IMG/VR virus record: IMGVR_UViG_2690316086_000021
DNA: 39,472 nucleotides
Direction: 5' to 3' (one strand)
Origin: a virus
Taxonomy: Duplodnaviria; Heunggongvirae; Uroviricota; Caudoviricetes
The notes under the pieces were generated by a model, which did not search any database, had not been told where the DNA came from, and saw only the letters and a list, made by a program, of their open reading frames with translations. How positions within the stretch are numbered: the stretch's first letter is position 1; every line of letters starts with the position of its first letter. Below, piece after piece: positions 1 through 38,639 of the stretch. The position numbers and the translations under genes were made by a program.

Positions 1-1254
1 ATGCTGGAACAAATGGGCATTGCCGCGAAGCAAGCCTCGTATAAATTAGCGCAACTCTCCAGCCGCGAAAAAAATCGCGTGCTGGAAAAAATCGCCGATG
101 AACTGGAAGCACAAAGCGAAATCATCCTCAACGCTAACGCCCAGGATGTTGCTGACGCGCGAGCCAATGGCCTTAGCGAAGCGATGCTTGACCGTCTGGC
201 ACTGACGCCCGCACGGCTGAAAGGCATTGCCGACGATGTACGTCAGGTGTGCAACCTCGCCGATCCGGTGGGGCAGGTAATCGATGGCGGCGTACTGGAC
301 AGCGGCCTGCGTCTTGAGCGTCGTCGCGTACCGCTGGGGGTTATTGGCGTGATTTATGAAGCGCGCCCGAACGTGACGGTTGATGTCGCTTCGCTGTGCC
401 TGAAAACCGGTAACGCAGTGATCCTGCGCGGTGGCAAAGAAACGTGTCGCACTAACGCTGCAACGGTGGCGGTGATTCAGGACGCCCTGAAATCCTGCGG
501 CTTACCGGCGGGTGCCGTGCAGGCGATTGATAATCCTGACCGTGCGCTGGTCAGTGAAATGCTGCGTATGGATAAATACATCGACATGCTGATCCCGCGT
601 GGTGGCGCTGGTTTGCATAAACTGTGCCGTGAACAGTCGACAATCCCGGTGATCACAGGTGGTATAGGCGTATGCCATATTTACGTTGATGAAAGTGTAG
701 AGATCGCTGAAGCATTAAAAGTGATCGTCAACGCGAAAACTCAGCGTCCGAGCACATGTAATACGGTTGAAACGTTGCTGGTGAATAAAAACATCGCCGA
801 TAGCTTCCTGCCCGCATTAAGCAAACAAATGGCGGAAAGCGGCGTGACATTACACGCAGATGCAGCTGCACTGGCGCAGTTGCAGGCAGGCCCTGCGAAG
901 GTGGTTGCTGTTAAAGCCGAAGAGTATGACGATGAGTTTCTGTCATTAGATTTGAACGTCAAAATCGTCAGCGATCTTGACGATGCCATCGCCCATATTC
1001 GTGAACACGGCACACAACACTCCGATGCGATCCTGACCCGCGATATGCGCAACGCCCAGCGTTTTGTTAACGAAGTGGATTCGTCCGCTGTTTACGTTAA
1101 CGCCTCTACGCGTTTTACCGACGGCGGCCAGTTTGGTCTGGGTGCGGAAGTGGCGGTAAGCACACAAAAACTCCACGCGCGTGGCCCAATGGGGCTGGAA
1201 GCACTGACCACTTACAAGTGGATCGGCATTGGTGATTACACCATTCGTGCGTAA
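1..1254 (+). CDS. proA: gamma-glutamyl phosphate reductase (glutamate-5-semialdehyde dehydrogenase), complete 417 aa
   Basis: Full-length 417-aa ORF starting at position 1; sequence recognised as enterobacterial ProA; the gene is followed by thrW as in E. coli. Confidence 0.93.
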
Positions 1255-1458: not shown

Positions 1459-2622
1459 TTACACATCATTAGTACCTTCCTTATTTTTTGACTGGGACAA
1501 ATTTGGGACCGATGGGTTCAGGATCGAGTCTATTTGCCGTGCGTGTTCGGTAAGGTGATTAGGTGCAAGGTGAGCATATCGACGAACCATTTCGATAGAC
1601 TCCCAGCCTCCCATTTCCTGTAACACTGACAACGGGACTCCGGCTTGAACCAGCCAACTTGCCCAGGTGTGTCTCAAGTCGTGAAATCTGAAATCATCAA
1701 TACCAGCCCGTCTCAGCGCCGCTTTCCAGGCTGTGTTTGCGTCATACCGCATCTTCCTTACTGTTGGCGCTTTCGTTCCGTCTGGTTTGGTACAGCTTTC
1801 CTTGTACACAAATACCCAACGGTGATGATTCCCGATTTGTTTTTTCAATACGCGACATGCAGTATCATTCAGCGCAACGCCAATTGCGCGGTTTGATTTA
1901 CTCTCTTCCGGGTTTATCCATGCCACCCGGCGCTGCATATCTATTTGTTGCCATTCAAGGTTGATGATGTTCGAGCGTCTTAAGCCTGTTGCCAGTGCAA
2001 ATTCAACAACAGACTTTAATGGCTCCGGACATTCATCAATCAGCCTTTGTGCTTCATGGGGCTCCAGCCAGCGGATCCGTTTATTCTTTGGTTGAGGCAC
2101 TTTAATAATTGGTGCCTTATCCAGCATTTTCCATTCACGCTCTGCGGCTCTTAGTAGGGCCTTTATAAATGAAAGATGCGTAGCCTTCGTTGCAACGGAC
2201 GCTGGTTTTGGCGTGTATTCTGGAACAGGTTTCCCTTTTTTTCTGCATGCTTCTGCCCTGAGTTTCCAGTTTTCCTCATGACGCCGGTTCGTCATTTTCT
2301 GCATTGCTGAATAAATTTTTGATTCAGTAATGTCTCTTAGTTGCATTCCTGCGAAATGTTGAAGCCAGAATCCGATCCGGCTTTTGTCATCGTCCAGTGA
2401 TTTTTTATGTGCTTTCTCTTCAAGCCACCTGACACACGCTTCCTCGAACGTTATATCAGGTATTTCACCAAGTTTGCTGACCCGCCATGCTTCAGCCTTT
2501 AGCTTGTCATGGAGTTCTGTCGCCTGCCTTTTGTCCTTTGTTCCAAGAGACTGTTTAAATCTTTTACCGTTCGGCAATGTGAAACTGGCGTACCATATTT
2601 CACCTCTGCGGAAGAGTGACAT
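1459..2622 (-). CDS. int: Phage tyrosine integrase (site-specific recombinase)
   Basis: 387-aa ORF with typical integrase N-terminus ([14 protein letters not shown]...) and C-terminal catalytic region (..[42 protein letters not shown]) containing the R..H..R..Y pattern; 3' end abuts thrW. Confidence 0.9.
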
Positions 2623-3154: not shown

Positions 3155-3516
3155 TATGCTCCAGCCTCCGGTGCTTTTGGCATTACTGCCCAGTGAGTGA
3201 TATTGACGTTTTCAAGGTCCCCAACCTGAAATGTCCACTGCCATTCTCTGGTTTCTTTTTGTCCCCAGGTGTACCAGAGAGAACGCCAGCCAATCAGCCA
3301 GCATTCTCCATTAGCATCAAATAACAGAACACTTTCATTTGCTGGTGGCAGTTCAGCTGACACTGGTATTATTTTGTTTTCCAGTGCCGCACATTTAGCT
3401 TCAAGCGCGTCGAATTTACGTACCAGGTACTCAGCATTTGTTTCGTTCACTTTCAGATCTCGCGGTACACATTTCCCGCGAAGAAACCCTTCCATTTCGA
3501 AAACATTCATGCGCAT
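3154..3516 (-). CDS. Hypothetical prophage early protein (YfdS-like, 120 aa)
   Basis: 120-aa ORF in operon context; start overlaps the upstream gene stop (translational coupling). Confidence 0.5.
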   Translation of the reverse strand: MRMNVFEMEGFLRGKCVPRDLKVNETNAEYLVRKFDALEAKCAALENKIIPVSAELPPANESVLLFDANGECWLIGWRSLWYTWGQKETREWQWTFQVGDLENVNITHWAVMPKAPEAGA

Positions 3517-9483: not shown

Positions 9484-9974
9484 TCATGAGTCTGTTAAAT
9501 GACGTTCAGAAATTCATTGAAGCCCATCCGGGGTGTACTTCCGGAGACATTGCGGATGCTTTTACAGGTTACTCACGGCAGCGCGTTCTGCAGTCAGCAA
9601 GCAAGTTACGTCAGAGTGGGCGTGTGGCTCACCGTTGTGAAGGAGATACACGCAGACATTTCCCGCGCCTGACTGAGAGAGCGCAGGAACCGGAACCACA
9701 ACCAGTTCGTGAAACCAGACCTGTGCGCAATTTCTATGTCGGCACTAACGATCCCCGTGTGATTTTGTGCCTGACCCGCCAGGCGGAAGAACTGGAGTCC
9801 AGGGGCTTATACCGTCGTGCTGCAACCGTGTGGATGGCGGCATTCCGTGAAAGCCACTCCCAGCCAGAACGAAACAATTTTCTGGCGCGTCGTGAGCGGT
9901 GCTTACGGAAAAGCAGCAAGCGCGCTGCATCGGGTGAAGAGTGGTATCTGTCAGGGAATTACGTGGGGGCTTAA
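9480..9974 (+). CDS. YfdN-like prophage protein with PerC/ANR-like C-terminal motif (putative regulator)
   Basis: 164-aa ORF (GTG 9480 or ATG 9486) following the O-like gene; C-terminal ..LESRGLYRRAATVWMAAFRE.. resembles PerC-family regulators; assignment by recall. Confidence 0.45.
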   Translation: MIMSLLNDVQKFIEAHPGCTSGDIADAFTGYSRQRVLQSASKLRQSGRVAHRCEGDTRRHFPRLTERAQEPEPQPVRETRPVRNFYVGTNDPRVILCLTRQAEELESRGLYRRAATVWMAAFRESHSQPERNNFLARRERCLRKSSKRAASGEEWYLSGNYVGA

Positions 9975-10627
9975 TGAGTAATAAATATTGCCAGGCGCTG
10001 GTGGAACTGCGGAACAAACCAGCCCATGAACTGAAGGAAGTGGGCGATCAGTGGCGCACGCCGGACAACATTTTCTGGGGAATTAACACCCTGTTTGGCC
10101 CGTTTGTTCTGGATCTGTTCACTGACGGTGATAACGCCAAATGTGCCGCGTATTACACGGCGGAAGACAACGCGCTGGCGCATGACTGGTCAGAACGTCT
10201 TGCGGAGCTTAAAGGTGCTGCCTTTGGTAATCCCCCATACAGCCGCGCCAGTCAGCATGAGGGGCAATACATCACCGGCATGCGTTACATCATGAAACAT
10301 GCCAGTGCCATGCGTGATAAGGGCGGGCGCTATGTTTTCCTGATCAAAGCTGCCACCAGCGAAGTGTGGTGGCCGGAAGATGCAGATCATATTGCTTTTA
10401 TTCGCGGGCGTATTGGTTTTGAACTGCCTGTCTGGTTTATCCCGAAAGACGAGAAGCAGGTACCGACAGGAGCTTTTTTCGCTGGTGCTATTGCTGTTTT
10501 TGACAAGACCTGGAAGGGACCGGCAATCAGCTACATCGGGCGCGATGAACTTGAGGCATGTGGTGAGGCGTTTCTGGCGCAGGTTCGCCAGCAGGCGGAA
10601 AAACTGGTCAGGGAGATGGCGGCATGA
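9974..10627 (+). CDS. Phage N6-adenine DNA methyltransferase (Dam family)
   Basis: Catalytic motif FGNPPY (..AAFGNPPYSRA..); ATG 9974 overlaps the upstream stop (TAATG); the track's 9941 start would overlap the preceding gene. Confidence 0.8.
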   Translation: MSNKYCQALVELRNKPAHELKEVGDQWRTPDNIFWGINTLFGPFVLDLFTDGDNAKCAAYYTAEDNALAHDWSERLAELKGAAFGNPPYSRASQHEGQYITGMRYIMKHASAMRDKGGRYVFLIKAATSEVWWPEDADHIAFIRGRIGFELPVWFIPKDEKQVPTGAFFAGAIAVFDKTWKGPAISYIGRDELEACGEAFLAQVRQQAEKLVREMAA

Positions 10628-13150: not shown

Positions 13151-13167
13151 TTTTGTGGAGAAATTTG

Positions 13168-13533
13168 ATGCGTGATATTCAGATCATCCTTGAACGTTGG
13201 GGGGCATGGGCAGCTAGTGATAGCTCAGGAGTGGACTATTCGCCTATAGCTGCTGGGTTTAAGGGACTTCTTCCCTATACCAGTAAGGCACGCCAAGCTT
13301 GTTCAGATAATGATGCGCTAATTATTGAAAGTTGCTTGGAGCAACTAAAAAAAAGAAAACCTTATGAGCATTCTCTACTGGTTGCGCATTATTTGTACGG
13401 GTTTTCAAAGCGGAAGATTGCCAAAGTACAAGGAAAGGATGAGAAATTAATCCGTATAGAAATATTGTTAGCAGAGGGATTCATTGATGGTTGCCTTTCT
13501 ACTCTCGATATTCATTTAGATATGGAGTTATAA
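13168..13533 (+). CDS. Late-gene antiterminator Q (QuuD-like)
   Basis: From ATG 13168: MRDIQIILERWGAWAA...IAAGFKGLL.., closely resembling recalled DLP12 QuuD; sits just upstream of the lysis cassette. Confidence 0.7.
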   Translation: MRDIQIILERWGAWAASDSSGVDYSPIAAGFKGLLPYTSKARQACSDNDALIIESCLEQLKKRKPYEHSLLVAHYLYGFSKRKIAKVQGKDEKLIRIEILLAEGFIDGCLSTLDIHLDMEL

Positions 13534-13542
13534 TAAAAATAA

Positions 13543-13567
13543 CCCCGTAAACTTTATGTTTACGGGG
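13543..13567. terminator. Bidirectional hairpin between convergent Q and the TIR gene
   Basis: Perfect 10-bp stem CCCCGTAAAC/GTTTACGGGG with 5-nt loop; T-rich runs on both sides. Confidence 0.55.
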
Positions 13568-13572
13568 GAAGG

Positions 13573-14412
13573 TTATTTCTTTTTTTTATTACTTTCAGAT
13601 AATCGTCGGTTTAATGTGTATTTTATTTGGTTCCTAATCATTTTTTCAGGAATGTCATATTTGTCTAAGAATGATATTATTTCATCCTCGTCAAGCAATC
13701 CATTCTTTATAATTTCATCTATCTGTTTTTGTAGATACCAAACATCCTTCTGTTCTACAGGAGTTAAATTCATATGGCTATTTATGGAGTTGATAGTAGC
13801 ATCACGTTCAAGAACTCTAATCCTTTGATTTAATGAACGAGTGTTTTGTAATATTTCAGATAAAAGATCTTGTTCAGTACGTGGTTTTACTTCTTCAGTT
13901 GGAGGGTATTGATCTAAAGCTCGTTTAAAATTTTTTTCAAATTGCTCCCAGTATGTATTAAAAACTTGCTTTAGAATACGGTCATCTAAAGATTTATCGA
14001 CAAGACAATTGTTTATTGTCCTTACTAATTCCCAAACACTCTCTTTATTTGGCGTTGTGTGATTGAATTGAGCAAGTGGATCTTTTAAATCTTCTGGTTT
14101 TAAGTCAATCAAGAATGTACAAACTTTATTTGTTGAAAGTCCTTTTGCTAGTGCTCCTGTTTCAAACAAAATCCATGGTTTATTTTTATTTTCTTGTGTC
14201 AAACATACAATGCCGACAGATACATCTTTTAATTTATCATTAATTTCAGAGAACCATATAGCGCCACGATCAATATCTCTGGTTGAAATCCATGGCTGCG
14301 AAGCTTGGATAACACACTTCAGCCAGTCGCTAATAAGTTCTGCAACAGCTTGACTTCTTTGCCCAGACCAACTTATGAACACTTTCATTATGTACTCCAT
14401 GTAATCACTCAA
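13573..14412 (-). CDS. TIR-domain protein with uncharacterised C-terminal helical domain (candidate anti-phage defence gene); likely start at ATG 14388
   Basis: N-terminus MKVFISWSGQRSQAVAELISDWL..GIVCLTQENKNKPWILFETGALAKG matches the TIR beta-A motif (VFISxS) and a W(I/C)LxE-type putative catalytic Glu. ATG 14388 has GGAG at 6-nt spacing; the track start at 14412 is a TTG. Visibly AT-rich; opposite strand to neighbours. Confidence 0.7.
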   Translation of the reverse strand: MSDYMEYIMKVFISWSGQRSQAVAELISDWLKCVIQASQPWISTRDIDRGAIWFSEINDKLKDVSVGIVCLTQENKNKPWILFETGALAKGLSTNKVCTFLIDLKPEDLKDPLAQFNHTTPNKESVWELVRTINNCLVDKSLDDRILKQVFNTYWEQFEKNFKRALDQYPPTEEVKPRTEQDLLSEILQNTRSLNQRIRVLERDATINSINSHMNLTPVEQKDVWYLQKQIDEIIKNGLLDEDEIISFLDKYDIPEKMIRNQIKYTLNRRLSESNKKKK

Positions 14413-14511
14413 AAGGGACTGAAATTTACATTAAAAATTAAATAAAATCACTCACGCGGTCCGCAGAAACCATTGTAATCTGTTATGAGTGGTTACTTCG
14501 CCACACAACTT

Positions 14512-14540
14512 AAACCCGCCGTCGAGCGGGTTTTGTCGTT
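14512..14540 (+). terminator. Rho-independent terminator-like hairpin upstream of the holin (candidate tR'-type Q target)
   Basis: AACCCGC-cgtcga-GCGGGTT followed by TTTTGTCGTTTC, between the Q region and the lysis genes. Confidence 0.4.
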
Positions 14541-14685: not shown

Positions 14686-15012
14686 ATGCCTCATAACCCA
14701 AATACCTGGCTGGAGTTGTTCCAGAGCTGGTGGCGTGGAGACACACCACTGGGCGCAGTAATTATGTCGATCGTTATGGCTGGCTTGCGCATTGCCTATT
14801 TTGGCGGTGGTGGTGGCTGGAAGCGAAAAACGCTCGAGATTTTTCTCTGTGGCGCTCTGACACTGACTTTTGCATCCGCTCTTGAGTATGTCGGATGGCC
14901 TAAATCTCTTTCTGTTGCCATTGGTGGCGGCGTTGGGCTGATCGGGGTCGATGCTATTCGTGGTGCGGCAATGAGAGTAATCGGTAACAAGTTTGGTAGC
15001 TCGAAGGAGTAA
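14686..15012 (+). CDS. Holin (lambda S-family-like, class I)
   Basis: 108-aa ORF with hydrophobic segments and Gly-rich tracts, directly upstream of the endolysin; architecture parallels lambda S. Confidence 0.7.
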   Translation: MPHNPNTWLELFQSWWRGDTPLGAVIMSIVMAGLRIAYFGGGGGWKRKTLEIFLCGALTLTFASALEYVGWPKSLSVAIGGGVGLIGVDAIRGAAMRVIGNKFGSSKE

Positions 15013-15981: not shown

Positions 15982-16275
15982 TTATTGTGAGCAATACACA
16001 CGTGCTTCCAGCGGAGTATAAATGCCTAAAGTAATAAAACCGAGCAATCCATTTACGAATGTTTGCTGGGTTTCTGTTTTAACCACATTTTCTGCGCCGC
16101 CACAAATTTTGGCTGCATCAACAGTTTTCTCCTGTCCAATTCCCGAAACGAAGAAATGATGGGTGATGGTTTCCTTTGGTGTTACTGCTGTCGGTTTGTT
16201 TCCAACAGTAAACGTCTGTTGAGCACATCCTGTAATAAGCATTGCCAGAGCGGCAGAAAACAACATTTTTTTCAT
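15982..16275 (-). CDS. bor: Bor lipoprotein (serum-resistance lipoprotein of lambda)
   Basis: From ATG 16275: MKKMLFSAALAMLITGCAQQTFTV..KICGGAENVVKTETQQTFVNGLLGFITLGIYTPLEARVYCSQ, near-identical to recalled lambda Bor; the track's longer start is trimmed. Confidence 0.88.
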   Translation of the reverse strand: MKKMLFSAALAMLITGCAQQTFTVGNKPTAVTPKETITHHFFVSGIGQEKTVDAAKICGGAENVVKTETQQTFVNGLLGFITLGIYTPLEARVYCSQ

Positions 16276-16455
16276 CTTATTATCCTGCATTGTTAAAAAC
16301 GGCAGAATCCTATGTGACAACAATTAAACGATAGTTAAATGGATTGATGAAAATTAAAACTATATAGGTGTACGGTCAGACTATTGGAGGTAGTCAGGAT
16401 TTGAATGTCAGTCTGTTGTCGGCATTCTGGCAATGCAATTTGGATAAAGCGGGGA

Positions 16456-36689: not shown

Positions 36690-38639
36690 TTAATCGTGTT
36701 TTGGCCATACTTTCAATGCAATTTCCCCCAACATTTTACCCCGCTCCAGGATTTCATCCTCATCCCATTTATCCTTAACTATAAGTGGAATGTTCAGTCG
36801 TAGATTGGTGTGGACGATGAGAGCATCACGTTTTTTCAGAAATACAGCATTCTGAACAGAACGGTTTACGCTAAGGTTAAGCAAAGTTAGATTTCCCAAC
36901 GTAGCTATCGCTTGTTGCCGTTTCCTTACCAGTAGCTGTTCTGGGGTAAGATCGGTTCCAGACAGAACAATTTGGTTCAATACCGTAGCATCTGAATTTG
37001 TCACCATATGACCATTTTCGAGAGGCCAACAGGAATACCAACTTTGAGGCATAAGATGATCGATATCGAGGTTAGAAAGATTTGGAACATCAGGCTTCTC
37101 TGTCTTCACTTGGCGACAAAGTTCTCTTTCAAGTTCCGTTAACATTGAGCGCATTTTCGGTGCGTCGAGCCTGCCAGGATAAAGTGGAGCATTGATGCAA
37201 GCGTTGAGAAATTCTGAGTCCCCAGGCCAACGTGAGGCTTCGCCATTTAAGCTATTGAGGATATTACGTAACTCAACACTGGAAATTTCTGTTTTAGACA
37301 AGTGCCGCAATACATTCATAAATACATTGTTGTAATTCTTTGGCGTCAGGCCACATACGGCTCTTCGTACTACGTAGGAGACAAGATCATTATACATGGC
37401 TGCTTTCTCATCATCGGCGATGTTAGCTATCGAAATGAACAAAGCAAGCGGATAAAGTGTCGTCACATCATAGGCTGCGATGCGATGTCCAAAGTGTGAG
37501 ATGGGGGTTGTGCCAAAACCACCAACCAATTCTTTATATTGTGATGCATATTGTTTGAGGCGCTTTACTTGCAGATCTGCTCGTTGTGAAGGCAAGTCCT
37601 TACTTACATAATCACGATACTCATTGTAAAGACGAGACAGATCGATTTCACGTTGCCTTTCTGATTGCAATGTTGCATGCACTAGCCACTCCATGCGTGG
37701 TTTATTAATACGACCACGACGTTGTCTTTCTGACCAGTACGTATCTTCAAAGATCTTCCACTCATTCTCATATAATTCAACAGCATTAATATTTTCATGT
37801 TCAGCGCACATAAAAATATAATTGCGAATAAGATCTGTGGCATGAAGTTCCGCACCTCTGCCATTTAATGTTTCAAAAATTATTTGAGCGTCATCTTCAG
37901 CCTCGAGAAATATGCTTACTAGTTTCAGATCCGTCAAGACAGCCTCAATTAATGCTACAGCATTTTCTCGTGGTGAGTGATTTTCTATTTTAATCCACTT
38001 TATAAAGGCTTCAGTAAAAAAACATAATGCTTCTAGTGATGGCGGGTGATTAAAATGCTTACGCAACGTACCATGCTGCGTGAAACTATCAGAGAATACA
38101 TTCCGGATATCGTCAATATTTTCAACATTAAAACTTTGAATAAAATGAGTTTGATCCCGAAAAGTTGGCCACAGTTTGAAGCGCTCTACTTCTTTATTTC
38201 GCATTGTGTCTTCGTTTGAGTTTTTCAGGCAAGACGAAATGAGAGGCTCTAAGTAGGAAAGATCTGTTGCACGTAATGCTAATCGGATGGATGCCAGAAC
38301 ATATTGAAGAGTGGTCAATCGTTGCTGACCATCAATAATATGTATGGAATCTACACCGAATAATCCTTTTTTTGGTTGAGGTTCCAGTACAACTGCACCA
38401 AGGAAATGGGGAGTTGGTTTTGTACCCGAGAGCCGGGATTGTGCTTTCTCTAGGATATCCTCCAGTAGAGCTGACCATTGGTTTCGCTGAGTCCATACAT
38501 AGGCACGTTGATAGAATGGAACACAGTATTGTCGGCGGTCTTGAAAAAGTTGTTGGACAGTTAGCGTCTCGGATTTCATGGTATACCTGTAAGCGACATT
38601 GTACAAAAGTGAGGAGTTAATCTGATTTAGAACAATCAT
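36690..38639 (-). CDS. GmrSD-like type IV (modification-dependent) restriction endonuclease: N-terminal DUF262 + C-terminal DUF1524
   Basis: N-terminal ..FYQRAYVW....IIDGQQRLTTL.. (DUF262 DGQQR motif) and C-terminal ..DIDHLMPQSW.. region (DUF1524 His-Me finger-like); visibly AT-rich; start is either 38639 or ATG 38579. Confidence 0.75.
   Translation of the reverse strand: MIVLNQINSSLLYNVAYRYTMKSETLTVQQLFQDRRQYCVPFYQRAYVWTQRNQWSALLEDILEKAQSRLSGTKPTPHFLGAVVLEPQPKKGLFGVDSIHIIDGQQRLTTLQYVLASIRLALRATDLSYLEPLISSCLKNSNEDTMRNKEVERFKLWPTFRDQTHFIQSFNVENIDDIRNVFSDSFTQHGTLRKHFNHPPSLEALCFFTEAFIKWIKIENHSPRENAVALIEAVLTDLKLVSIFLEAEDDAQIIFETLNGRGAELHATDLIRNYIFMCAEHENINAVELYENEWKIFEDTYWSERQRRGRINKPRMEWLVHATLQSERQREIDLSRLYNEYRDYVSKDLPSQRADLQVKRLKQYASQYKELVGGFGTTPISHFGHRIAAYDVTTLYPLALFISIANIADDEKAAMYNDLVSYVVRRAVCGLTPKNYNNVFMNVLRHLSKTEISSVELRNILNSLNGEASRWPGDSEFLNACINAPLYPGRLDAPKMRSMLTELERELCRQVKTEKPDVPNLSNLDIDHLMPQSWYSCWPLENGHMVTNSDATVLNQIVLSGTDLTPEQLLVRKRQQAIATLGNLTLLNLSVNRSVQNAVFLKKRDALIVHTNLRLNIPLIVKDKWDEDEILERGKMLGEIALKVWPKHD

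Follow-up and report, generated by a model that had tools for sequence, protein, structure and literature searches.

The 2TM_1TM_TIR system of P2_AC1, whose three genes were cloned and tested as a set by Rousset et al. in 2022, protects against lambda, LF82_P8, and P2 (PMC9122126). SpbK, a 266-aa protein carried by ICEBs1 of Bacillus subtilis, joins a TIR domain to a domain of four helices and provides abortive infection from a single gene on a mobile element (PMC12847820, PMC8880864); its helical domain docks on the SPbeta portal, and clustering of its TIR domains activates a nicotinamide adenine dinucleotide (NAD+)-cleaving activity (NADase) (PMC12847820). A survey of Escherichia coli TIR proteins describes chromosomal ones that defend alone, need the TIR active site, and hasten death at a high multiplicity of infection, and portal or tail-fiber proteins are named as triggers of single-protein systems (PMC11350192). 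Here we compare with these systems a TIR gene that lies, antisense to the late genes, between the antiterminator gene Q and the holin gene of a lambdoid prophage. The prophage is that of IMG/VR virus record IMGVR_UViG_2690316086_000021, the whole 39,472-nucleotide stretch of which is called the window below. We think it somewhat probable, though far from assured, that this gene encodes a self-contained one-protein abortive-infection TIR NADase carried by the prophage as cargo.

PADLOC model PDLC03016, named TIR-TM, matched the window protein at an E value of 1.2e-57, with residues 1 to 255 aligned to positions 1 to 246 of the 293-position profile, and the protein also matched phrog_13899 (E = 3e-100), a PHROG family whose function is unannotated. 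The first-pass annotation, made from the sequence alone, had proposed a candidate single-gene antiphage system; a lone TIR gene carried as prophage cargo is what we found, but its family is one that the named TIR-TM model and phrog_13899 already match. A tblastn search against phage records returned two relatives, gp47 of mEp390 and a 315-aa homologue in P2_AC1. The mEp390 protein is 59% identical to that of the window, and its gene stands in the same order of Q, terminators, antisense gene, and holins. The P2_AC1 homologue is 32% identical over 276 residues (E = 1e-36) and matched the TIR-TM model at an E value of 2.7e-118, and the two small genes ahead of it matched the PADLOC models 1TM-TIR and 2TM-TIR. 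The likeness to this component of 2TM_1TM_TIR extends along nearly the whole protein: both have an N-terminal TIR domain, the motifs FISWSG and PW.(L/N)FE.GAL, and a helical C-terminal part, and both are encoded by temperate-phage cargo genes. However, the P2_AC1 gene follows those for 2TM-TIR and 1TM-TIR, whereas the window gene is accompanied by neither, and the P2_AC1 protein is longer, has C-terminal insertions, and is encoded in the P2 hotspot rather than next to Q.

When the window was searched by tblastn with the P2_AC1 partner proteins, the best E value for 1TM-TIR was 0.57, and 2TM-TIR gave no significant match among the matches listed. The other 56 open reading frames (ORFs) of the window, when scanned with PADLOC, included no ThsA, SAVED, STING, or cyclase gene and no TM-TIR partner; the matches there were limited to regulators, a phage adenine methyltransferase, and HNH-type proteins; a GmrSD gene, described below, was scanned separately. 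PADLOC returned a TIR-TM match with its partners absent, and two of the claims made in the first-pass annotation, that the gene has no adjacent partner and that its arrangement is neither that of Thoeris nor that of CBASS (cyclic oligonucleotide-based antiphage signaling system), were borne out and hold for Pycsar (pyrimidine cyclase system for antiphage resistance) as well. Judged by homology, the window gene is a relative of one component of a named system, two of whose three required genes are missing. The question of whether it is already a member of a named defense family therefore has a divided answer: it is a homologue of the named TIR-TM component, but the 2TM_1TM_TIR system is incomplete. 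Single-gene TIR defense is known already, and the protein is homologous to the TIR component of a named system, so it is not categorically new.

The remaining systems resemble the window gene in part. Its product is, like ThsB of Thoeris, a small TIR protein of bacteria with a presumed role in sensing phage, and a few of its relatives adjoin type II Thoeris genes. However, no ThsA is present in the window or at most loci of the family, the window gene is flanked by Q and the holin gene, and ThsB is without the helical stalk and tail of the window protein; the PADLOC ThsB1 model matched at an E value of 0.018 over 30 residues only. The window gene does not have the layout of CBASS and Pycsar TIR effectors, in which the TIR domain is fused to SAVED, STING, or a cyclic nucleotide monophosphate-binding domain and a cyclase is encoded nearby. 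With AbTir and plant RPP1 the kinship is at the level of the domain only, and both architecture and biology differ. As in SpbK, one gene on a mobile element combines a TIR domain with a small helical domain that is a candidate sensor, but SpbK has the helical sensor at its N terminus and the TIR domain at its C terminus, the reverse of the order found here, and is without the conserved 70-residue stalk. The two proteins are 16% identical in a structural alignment, and SpbK was absent from the PDB sequence and profile matches. TIR-V and TIR-IX of the E. coli survey have C termini that superimpose and N termini that differ, which is the opposite layout to that of the window protein (PMC11350192). 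The cluster of the window protein may or may not already be in that survey, with either outcome, as TIR-VI or as one of its 20 inactive candidates.

Domains and rates of change in the TIR protein

The gene, its ribosome-binding site, and the parts of its product are as follows (positions in the window).

13573..14388, minus strand: TIR gene, starting with the ATG at 14386-14388, 271 codons long and followed by a stop codon (13573-13575)
14395..14398, minus strand: Shine-Dalgarno sequence GGAG, 6 nt before the ATG, read directly from the sequence
13999..14388, minus strand: TIR domain, residues 1-130, with the beta-A motif FISWSG and WILFE containing E76 (codon 14161-14163)
13792..13998, minus strand: helical stalk (residues 131-199), conserved, made up of two long helices and with the motif PPR(S/T)EQD(I/L)LSEIL.NTR
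13576..13791, minus strand: C-terminal tail (residues 200-271), hypervariable, which forms a small bundle of helices and is a candidate domain for sensing or specificity

The window protein has a TIR (flavodoxin-like) fold. It matched Pfam TIR_2 above the cut-off, and its top Foldseek matches were TIR domains, TcpB/BtpA and MAL/TIRAP being among the structural matches; it had no match in NCBIfam. A full-length profile searched against PDB gave chance-level matches only, to DrrA and EpiD; a profile of the TIR domain alone was required to reach the TIR NADases. This profile, made from the first 135 residues of 31 sequences of several phyla, matched the RPP1 TIR domain at an E value of 5.5e-4 and AbTir at 0.03 to 0.06. 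In the profile alignment, E76 lies opposite the glutamates of WCLDE in RPP1 and WTNYE in AbTir, which published work gives as the catalytic residues of those proteins, and the beta-A serine motif is aligned as well. The PDB deposits describe RPP1 (7xoz) as an ADP-ribosyl cyclase/cyclic ADP-ribose hydrolase and AbTir (8g83) as the NAD(+) hydrolase AbTIR. By this alignment, E76 of the window protein is the W-x-x-x-E glutamate with which helix alpha-C begins, and E76 of KPWILFETG was invariant in 31 of the 31 sequences. The initial recognition of a TIR domain from FISWSG in beta-A and the glutamate of WILFE thus agrees with Pfam TIR_2, with the alignment to RPP1 and AbTir, and with the Foldseek comparison that had been recommended as a check, in which the best matches were TIR domains.

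Beyond the TIR domain, AlphaFold2 (AF2) predicted five helices, at residues 136-160, 172-203, 210-228, 234-240, and 248-270, in keeping with the helical C-terminal half noted at first reading. The stalk helices (136-160 and 172-203) had predicted local distance difference test (pLDDT) scores of 83 to 97 in a half-length AF2 model, and P169, R170, E178, I179, L180, T183, and R184 of the stalk are invariant. Mean pairwise identity among 69 homologues falls from 87% over residues 1-130 to 69% over residues 131-192 and 25% over residues 193-271. In close pairs, the first 192 residues are 96 to 99% identical and the tails 54 to 87%, such that the tail has diverged 10 to 40 times faster than the rest of the protein. 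Nei-Gojobori estimates of omega, the ratio of nonsynonymous to synonymous change, were 0.02 to 0.07 for the core and 0.31 to 0.52 for the tail in the two informative locus pairs, whose synonymous divergence (dS) was 0.74 to 0.85. By these sequence comparisons, the tail is much less constrained than the core, and yet its length is kept and AF2 predicts it to be a folded helical bundle. The low identity of the tail, its fast divergence, and its higher omega, together with its predicted fold, are why we regard it as sensor-like, and a conserved core joined to a variable tail is what one would expect where a conserved effector carries a specificity domain, which makes the tail a candidate for such a domain. 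Positive selection in the tail was considered and is not demonstrated: omega is above that of the core yet below 1 in the two usable locus pairs.

The ORF listing gave the frame as 13573..14412 (minus strand), opened at an upstream TTG. We prefer the ATG at 14388 as the likely true start because GGAG at 14395-14398 precedes it with a 6-nt spacer and because RefSeq uses the same start, which also fits the product beginning MKVFISWSGQ that was recognized at the outset. The RefSeq coding sequence, WP_024221339.1 (271 aa, "TIR domain-containing protein"), is the same gene in an identical locus of E. coli 268.2. Among 5,426 complete E. coli genomes, 25 carry the gene, at an identity of at least 99.6% and with an intact coding sequence in all 25; their sources include poultry, pigs, and humans. 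The gene is AT rich, as had been remarked, with a G+C content of 32.5% against 51.0% for the window; that of Q is 40.4%. Its product's nearest homologue was found at an E value of 5e-174. Despite the model name TIR-TM, the TIR protein is not a membrane protein, as no hydrophobic segment is present in its 271 residues. Opposite-strand ORFs within the gene (for example 13556-13828, plus strand) were considered AT-rich by-products and excluded from the family scans.

The structural matches to TcpB/BtpA and MAL/TIRAP, together with the poultry, pig, and human hosts of the 25 genomes and the presence of iss 1.6 kb away in the same prophage, would also suit a virulence factor like TcpC or BtpA, a lysogenic-conversion gene whose product disturbs animal Toll-like-receptor signaling. 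However, these matches reflect the generic TIR fold, and the protein has neither a hydrophobic N terminus nor a transmembrane segment. Furthermore, the family extends through many phyla of marine and environmental bacteria, with Planctomycetota, Bacteroidota, Nitrosomonas, and Thiobacillus among its hosts, and a fast-changing tail suits an arms race with phages better than it suits a conserved animal target. We regard virulence as the least probable of the explanations weighed here.

Family, partners, and mode of action

A homologue search returned 2,083 clusters, and the best 120 of these, from Enterobacter, Klebsiella, Vibrio, Shewanella, Halomonas, and others, were almost all 265 to 300 aa long and 58 to 72% identical to the query, with a few fragments among them. 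An exhaustive search, run on 50%-identity representatives, put the family at 3,401 clusters at E ≤ 1e-30 and 9,389 at E ≤ 1e-10, mostly of 240 to 300 aa, and the matches nearly always ended near residue 195. When one genome per species was scanned, more than 546 loci were found, with 41 to 78% identity to the query over the first 194 residues, in Proteobacteria, Bacteroidota, Planctomycetota, Verrucomicrobiota, Bacillota, Acidobacteriota, and other phyla.

For the analysis of neighborhoods, 80 genomic and 79 viral loci were kept. No homologue of 1TM-TIR or 2TM-TIR was found at E ≤ 0.01 in the 80 genomic loci other than in P2_AC1 itself, and all-against-all clustering of 433 flanking ORFs from these loci revealed no conserved partner; the largest neighbor cluster comprised 4 loci, 3 of them from Pseudomonas. 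The immediate neighbors in the 78 other genomes include Gabija-, PARIS-, and Septu-like ATPases, Old, other TIR proteins, SLATT, and ThsA_Macro. IMG/VR holds 105 contigs that encode a relative. Membrane partners were present at one of the 79 viral loci, in a P2-like element, and absent from the other 78, and Q stood tail to tail with the TIR gene at 15 of the 79, with the same Q family and a varying lysis cassette. Klebsiella prophages have the same arrangement of Q and the TIR gene, joined to still another lysis cassette. On chromosome 2 of Vibrio cholerae, a homologue is the sole ORF of a 1,116-nt cassette with 138-nt repeats at its ends, which occurs (L166 4832-8187) as two exact copies 2.1 kb apart within a cassette array resembling a superintegron.

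The absence of a conserved neighbor and the one-ORF integron cassette fit a single-gene unit, and, as no partners are present in the window or at most loci, we take the gene to be autonomous. An alternative is that the window gene is an inactive remnant, an orphan TIR gene of 2TM_1TM_TIR that lost its partners and has no function alone. A PADLOC-type rule does return an incomplete system (TIR-TM present, 1TM-TIR and 2TM-TIR absent), and the TIR-TM match ends at position 246 of the 293 in the profile. However, solo members number in the thousands, and their core is strongly conserved (omega, 0.02 to 0.07). The gene is intact in 25 of 25 E. coli genomes, has its own terminator and ribosome-binding site, and recurs as an independent cassette. 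Taken together, these observations make a remnant very improbable. The link to defense rests on the TIR-TM match, on the P2_AC1 homologue from a validated system, on the defense genes among the neighbors, on a GmrSD gene in the same prophage, and on the other antisense cargo that occupies the same slot in related prophages.

If the gene is a one-protein abortive-infection NADase, we picture its action as follows. In a lysogen, the TIR protein would be made from its own promoter and stay idle. Upon infection by another phage, the fast-evolving C-terminal bundle would bind a phage protein, for which a structural protein that forms multimers is the most plausible candidate. Binding would gather the N-terminal TIR domains, with the conserved stalk as a scaffold, so that active sites might be completed between neighboring TIR domains. 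Glu76 would then cleave NAD+, and its depletion would halt growth or kill the cell before progeny are released, as in abortive infection. This model of a tail-sensing NADase is drawn by analogy, because of the precedents of SpbK and the single-protein TIR systems of E. coli.

Several points weigh against the reading of the gene as a lone NADase. The pLDDT score of the AF2 model falls below 50 around the active-site loop (residues 75-83). Relaxed constraint may account for the tail, whose mean omega is below 1 in the two locus pairs. The promoter proposed for the TIR gene, at 14423-14451, is by its sequence only a weak candidate. A literature search found no experiment on the window protein or on any solo member of the family, nor did it find a description of the solo family. 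In the E. coli survey, 20 of the 32 TIR candidates that were tested gave no defense (PMC11350192), and a TIR domain alone is therefore no proof of defense. The only validated relative, that of P2_AC1, acts in a three-gene context, for which Rousset et al. proposed signaling from the TIR protein to the membrane proteins in place of NAD+ depletion (PMC9122126). Finally, type II Thoeris genes adjoin the family gene at 3 of the 78 genomic loci, which would fit a role in signaling.

The main rival accordingly is ThsB-like signaling, in which the TIR protein would make an ADP-ribose-derived messenger instead of depleting NAD+, for an effector whose gene lies at some other place in the host genome or on a different element. 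It would suit the two membrane proteins beside the P2_AC1 relative, which have been proposed to be messenger-activated effectors (PMC9122126), as well as SpbK, which also makes N1-cyclic ADP-ribose, a product for which a receptor is possible (PMC12847820). It would also suit the Thoeris-adjacent loci, where ThsA_Macro lies beside the family gene in L024 (5100-5939) and L074 (7009-7869) and ThsB_TIR does so in L038 (6861-7376); these members may be an extra ThsB, or they may reflect mere clustering in defense islands. However, no linked effector-like partner was found in at least 75 of the 78 genomic loci, in 78 of the 79 viral loci, or in the window, and a one-gene integron or prophage cassette that crosses phyla cannot rely on a matching receptor in each host. 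The ThsB model of PADLOC, moreover, reached an E value of only 0.018. We therefore regard signaling to a distant effector as unlikely.

A prophage TIR defense gene would by itself be no great surprise to specialists. What makes this gene a good and easily tested candidate for one-protein defense is that its family is so large and widespread, that core and tail are so sharply divided, and that it recurs beside Q. If it defends alone, several thousand clusters in many phyla that are now labeled "TIR domain-containing protein" or an unknown PHROG would belong to a defined one-gene immune system, which rule-based tools that demand the three genes of 2TM_1TM_TIR would miss because the partners are absent. 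A near-invariant enzyme and stalk with a rapidly changing 70-residue tail would, furthermore, offer a compact model of how TIR domains are coupled to the recognition of a pathogen.

The gene at the Q-to-holin junction

The features around the TIR gene are as follows.

13153..13533, plus strand: Q antiterminator gene (Pfam Phage_antitermQ, E = 9.6e-49), tail to tail with the TIR gene
13543..13567, no strand assigned: terminator hairpin from the terminator scan, between the Q stop codon (13531-13533) and the TIR stop codon (13573-13575)
14423..14451, minus strand: candidate TIR promoter, with -35 GTGATT at 14446-14451, a 17-nt spacer, TG, and -10 TAAATT at 14423-14428
14419..14533, plus strand: late-promoter candidate region, with -10 TAAAAT at 14443-14448, CGCGGTCCGCA at 14456-14466, and a terminator hairpin at 14512-14533

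The TIR gene is antisense both to Q and to the lysis genes for holin, lysozyme, and Rz (from 14686), in agreement with the orientation first reported. The hairpin at 13543-13567, which lies 10 nt past the Q stop codon, has a T-run and a stem of 10 bp, 6 of them G-C pairs; on the minus strand, TTATTTTTAT comes after the stem. Terminators are annotated on both strands at the equivalent site in phage mEp390. The hairpin terminates the TIR transcript and is probably bidirectional, serving Q too. At the other end of the gene, the TIR-strand -10 positions T-A-n-A-n-T are invariant in an alignment of 12 Q-linked loci, and a consensus promoter scan did not call the candidate TIR promoter.

The same 12-locus alignment shows CGCGGTCCGCA to be invariant in the Q-to-holin intergenic region and a GTGGTT..CCAC element to be conserved ahead of the terminator hairpin. 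The promoter-like site and the hairpin on the plus strand came from the promoter and terminator scan. By analogy with lambdoid phage biology, the elements at 14443-14533 are probably the late promoter, the Q-utilization region, and its terminator for this Q family; the holin gene begins downstream of them, at 14686. The hairpins that had been seen on both sides of the TIR gene thus differ in their affiliation: the one at 13543-13567 belongs to the gene, but that at 14512-14533, on the plus strand, belongs to the late-promoter unit. The -35 element of the candidate TIR promoter (14446-14451) overlaps the -10 element of the divergent late-promoter candidate (14443-14448).

Homology to the holin-upstream regions of more than 1,000 E. 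coli prophages with a lambda-family holin starts at about 14434-14454, and the Q family ends at 13533, from which we place the cassette at about 13537-14433. As it is sited between Q and the late-promoter candidate, the TIR gene lies outside the late operon. In related E. coli prophages, the Q-to-holin slot holds, likewise antisense, either a KAP family nucleoside triphosphatase (NTPase) or a 404-aa protein together with an NA37-family "nucleoid-associated" protein; the loci with this alternative cargo are L085 2908-4239 (E. coli SEC470) and L084 68-2460 (E. coli STS73-1-E). Because the same Q family is found with other antisense cargo there, the slot behaves as a cargo hotspot. The first-pass annotation had likened it to the place where lambdoid phages carry stx or bor; cargo in the slot is confirmed by the related prophages, but the site is upstream of the late promoter and is not the position of either gene. 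The stx genes sit downstream of the late promoter, and bor sits after Rz. The recurrence of this Q-adjacent slot in Escherichia and Klebsiella, with other cargo as well, points to a lambdoid defense hotspot comparable to those of P2 and P4.

The arrangement at this junction could instead reflect a role in the prophage life cycle or in counter-defense, such as a Q-dependent late switch, the timing of lysis, or the consumption of a host immune nucleotide, and such a role would explain the lasting linkage to one Q family. Although the lysis cassette varies, Q and the TIR gene, with their common terminator, stay linked in Escherichia and Klebsiella prophages and in additional viral contigs. The -10 element of the late-promoter candidate is overlapped by the candidate TIR promoter, and Q is also AT rich (a G+C fraction of 0.40). 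However, most members of the family are found outside phages with no Q nearby, and the occurrence of an unrelated KAP NTPase in the slot beside the same Q family marks it as a cargo hotspot. We know of no TIR protein with a role in the life cycle of a prophage, and we consider this explanation quite improbable.

A broader proposal can be made, which we offer tentatively and consider doubtful. The solo family would be among the most widespread one-protein antiphage sensor-effectors, apart from Thoeris and 2TM_1TM_TIR, and its short hypervariable three-helix tail would read a core phage protein and diversify in an arms race. The enterobacterial gene would be wired into the junction of Q and the late promoter through its common terminator and overlapping promoter, and the prophage could silence it by antisense read-through or promoter competition at the onset of lytic growth. 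An abortive-infection gene on a prophage raises the question of how the prophage avoids triggering it.

Other genes of the prophage

At the far end of the prophage, directly after a tail-fiber assembly gene, 36690-38639 (minus strand) encodes a 649-aa type IV (modification-dependent) restriction enzyme of the GmrSD family. It matched Pfam GmrSD_N and GmrSD_C and scored 1,434 bits with the PADLOC model mREase_IV, and we classify it by these matches as the second defense cargo gene of the prophage. In the early region, 9941-10624 (plus strand) encodes an orphan phage N6-adenine DNA methyltransferase (PADLOC MTase_II, E = 4e-158), the ORF being assigned through RefSeq of the identical locus; the window yielded no restriction partner for it.

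At 15982-16323 (minus strand), directly after Rz, lies a gene for a serum-survival lipoprotein of the iss/bor type, which carries the annotation iss in the E. coli locus identical to this one. The position after Rz is the classical site of lambdoid morons.

The left end of the window begins with an ORF of the aldehyde dehydrogenase family at 1-1254 (plus strand), followed by a 387-aa ORF at 1459-2622 (minus strand), which presumably encodes the integrase. In E. coli 268.2, a closely related prophage with the same block of Q, TIR, and lysis genes adjoins an icd-type pseudogene, a truncated copy of the isocitrate dehydrogenase gene, and resembles e14. The module may therefore sit in prophages at different attachment sites.

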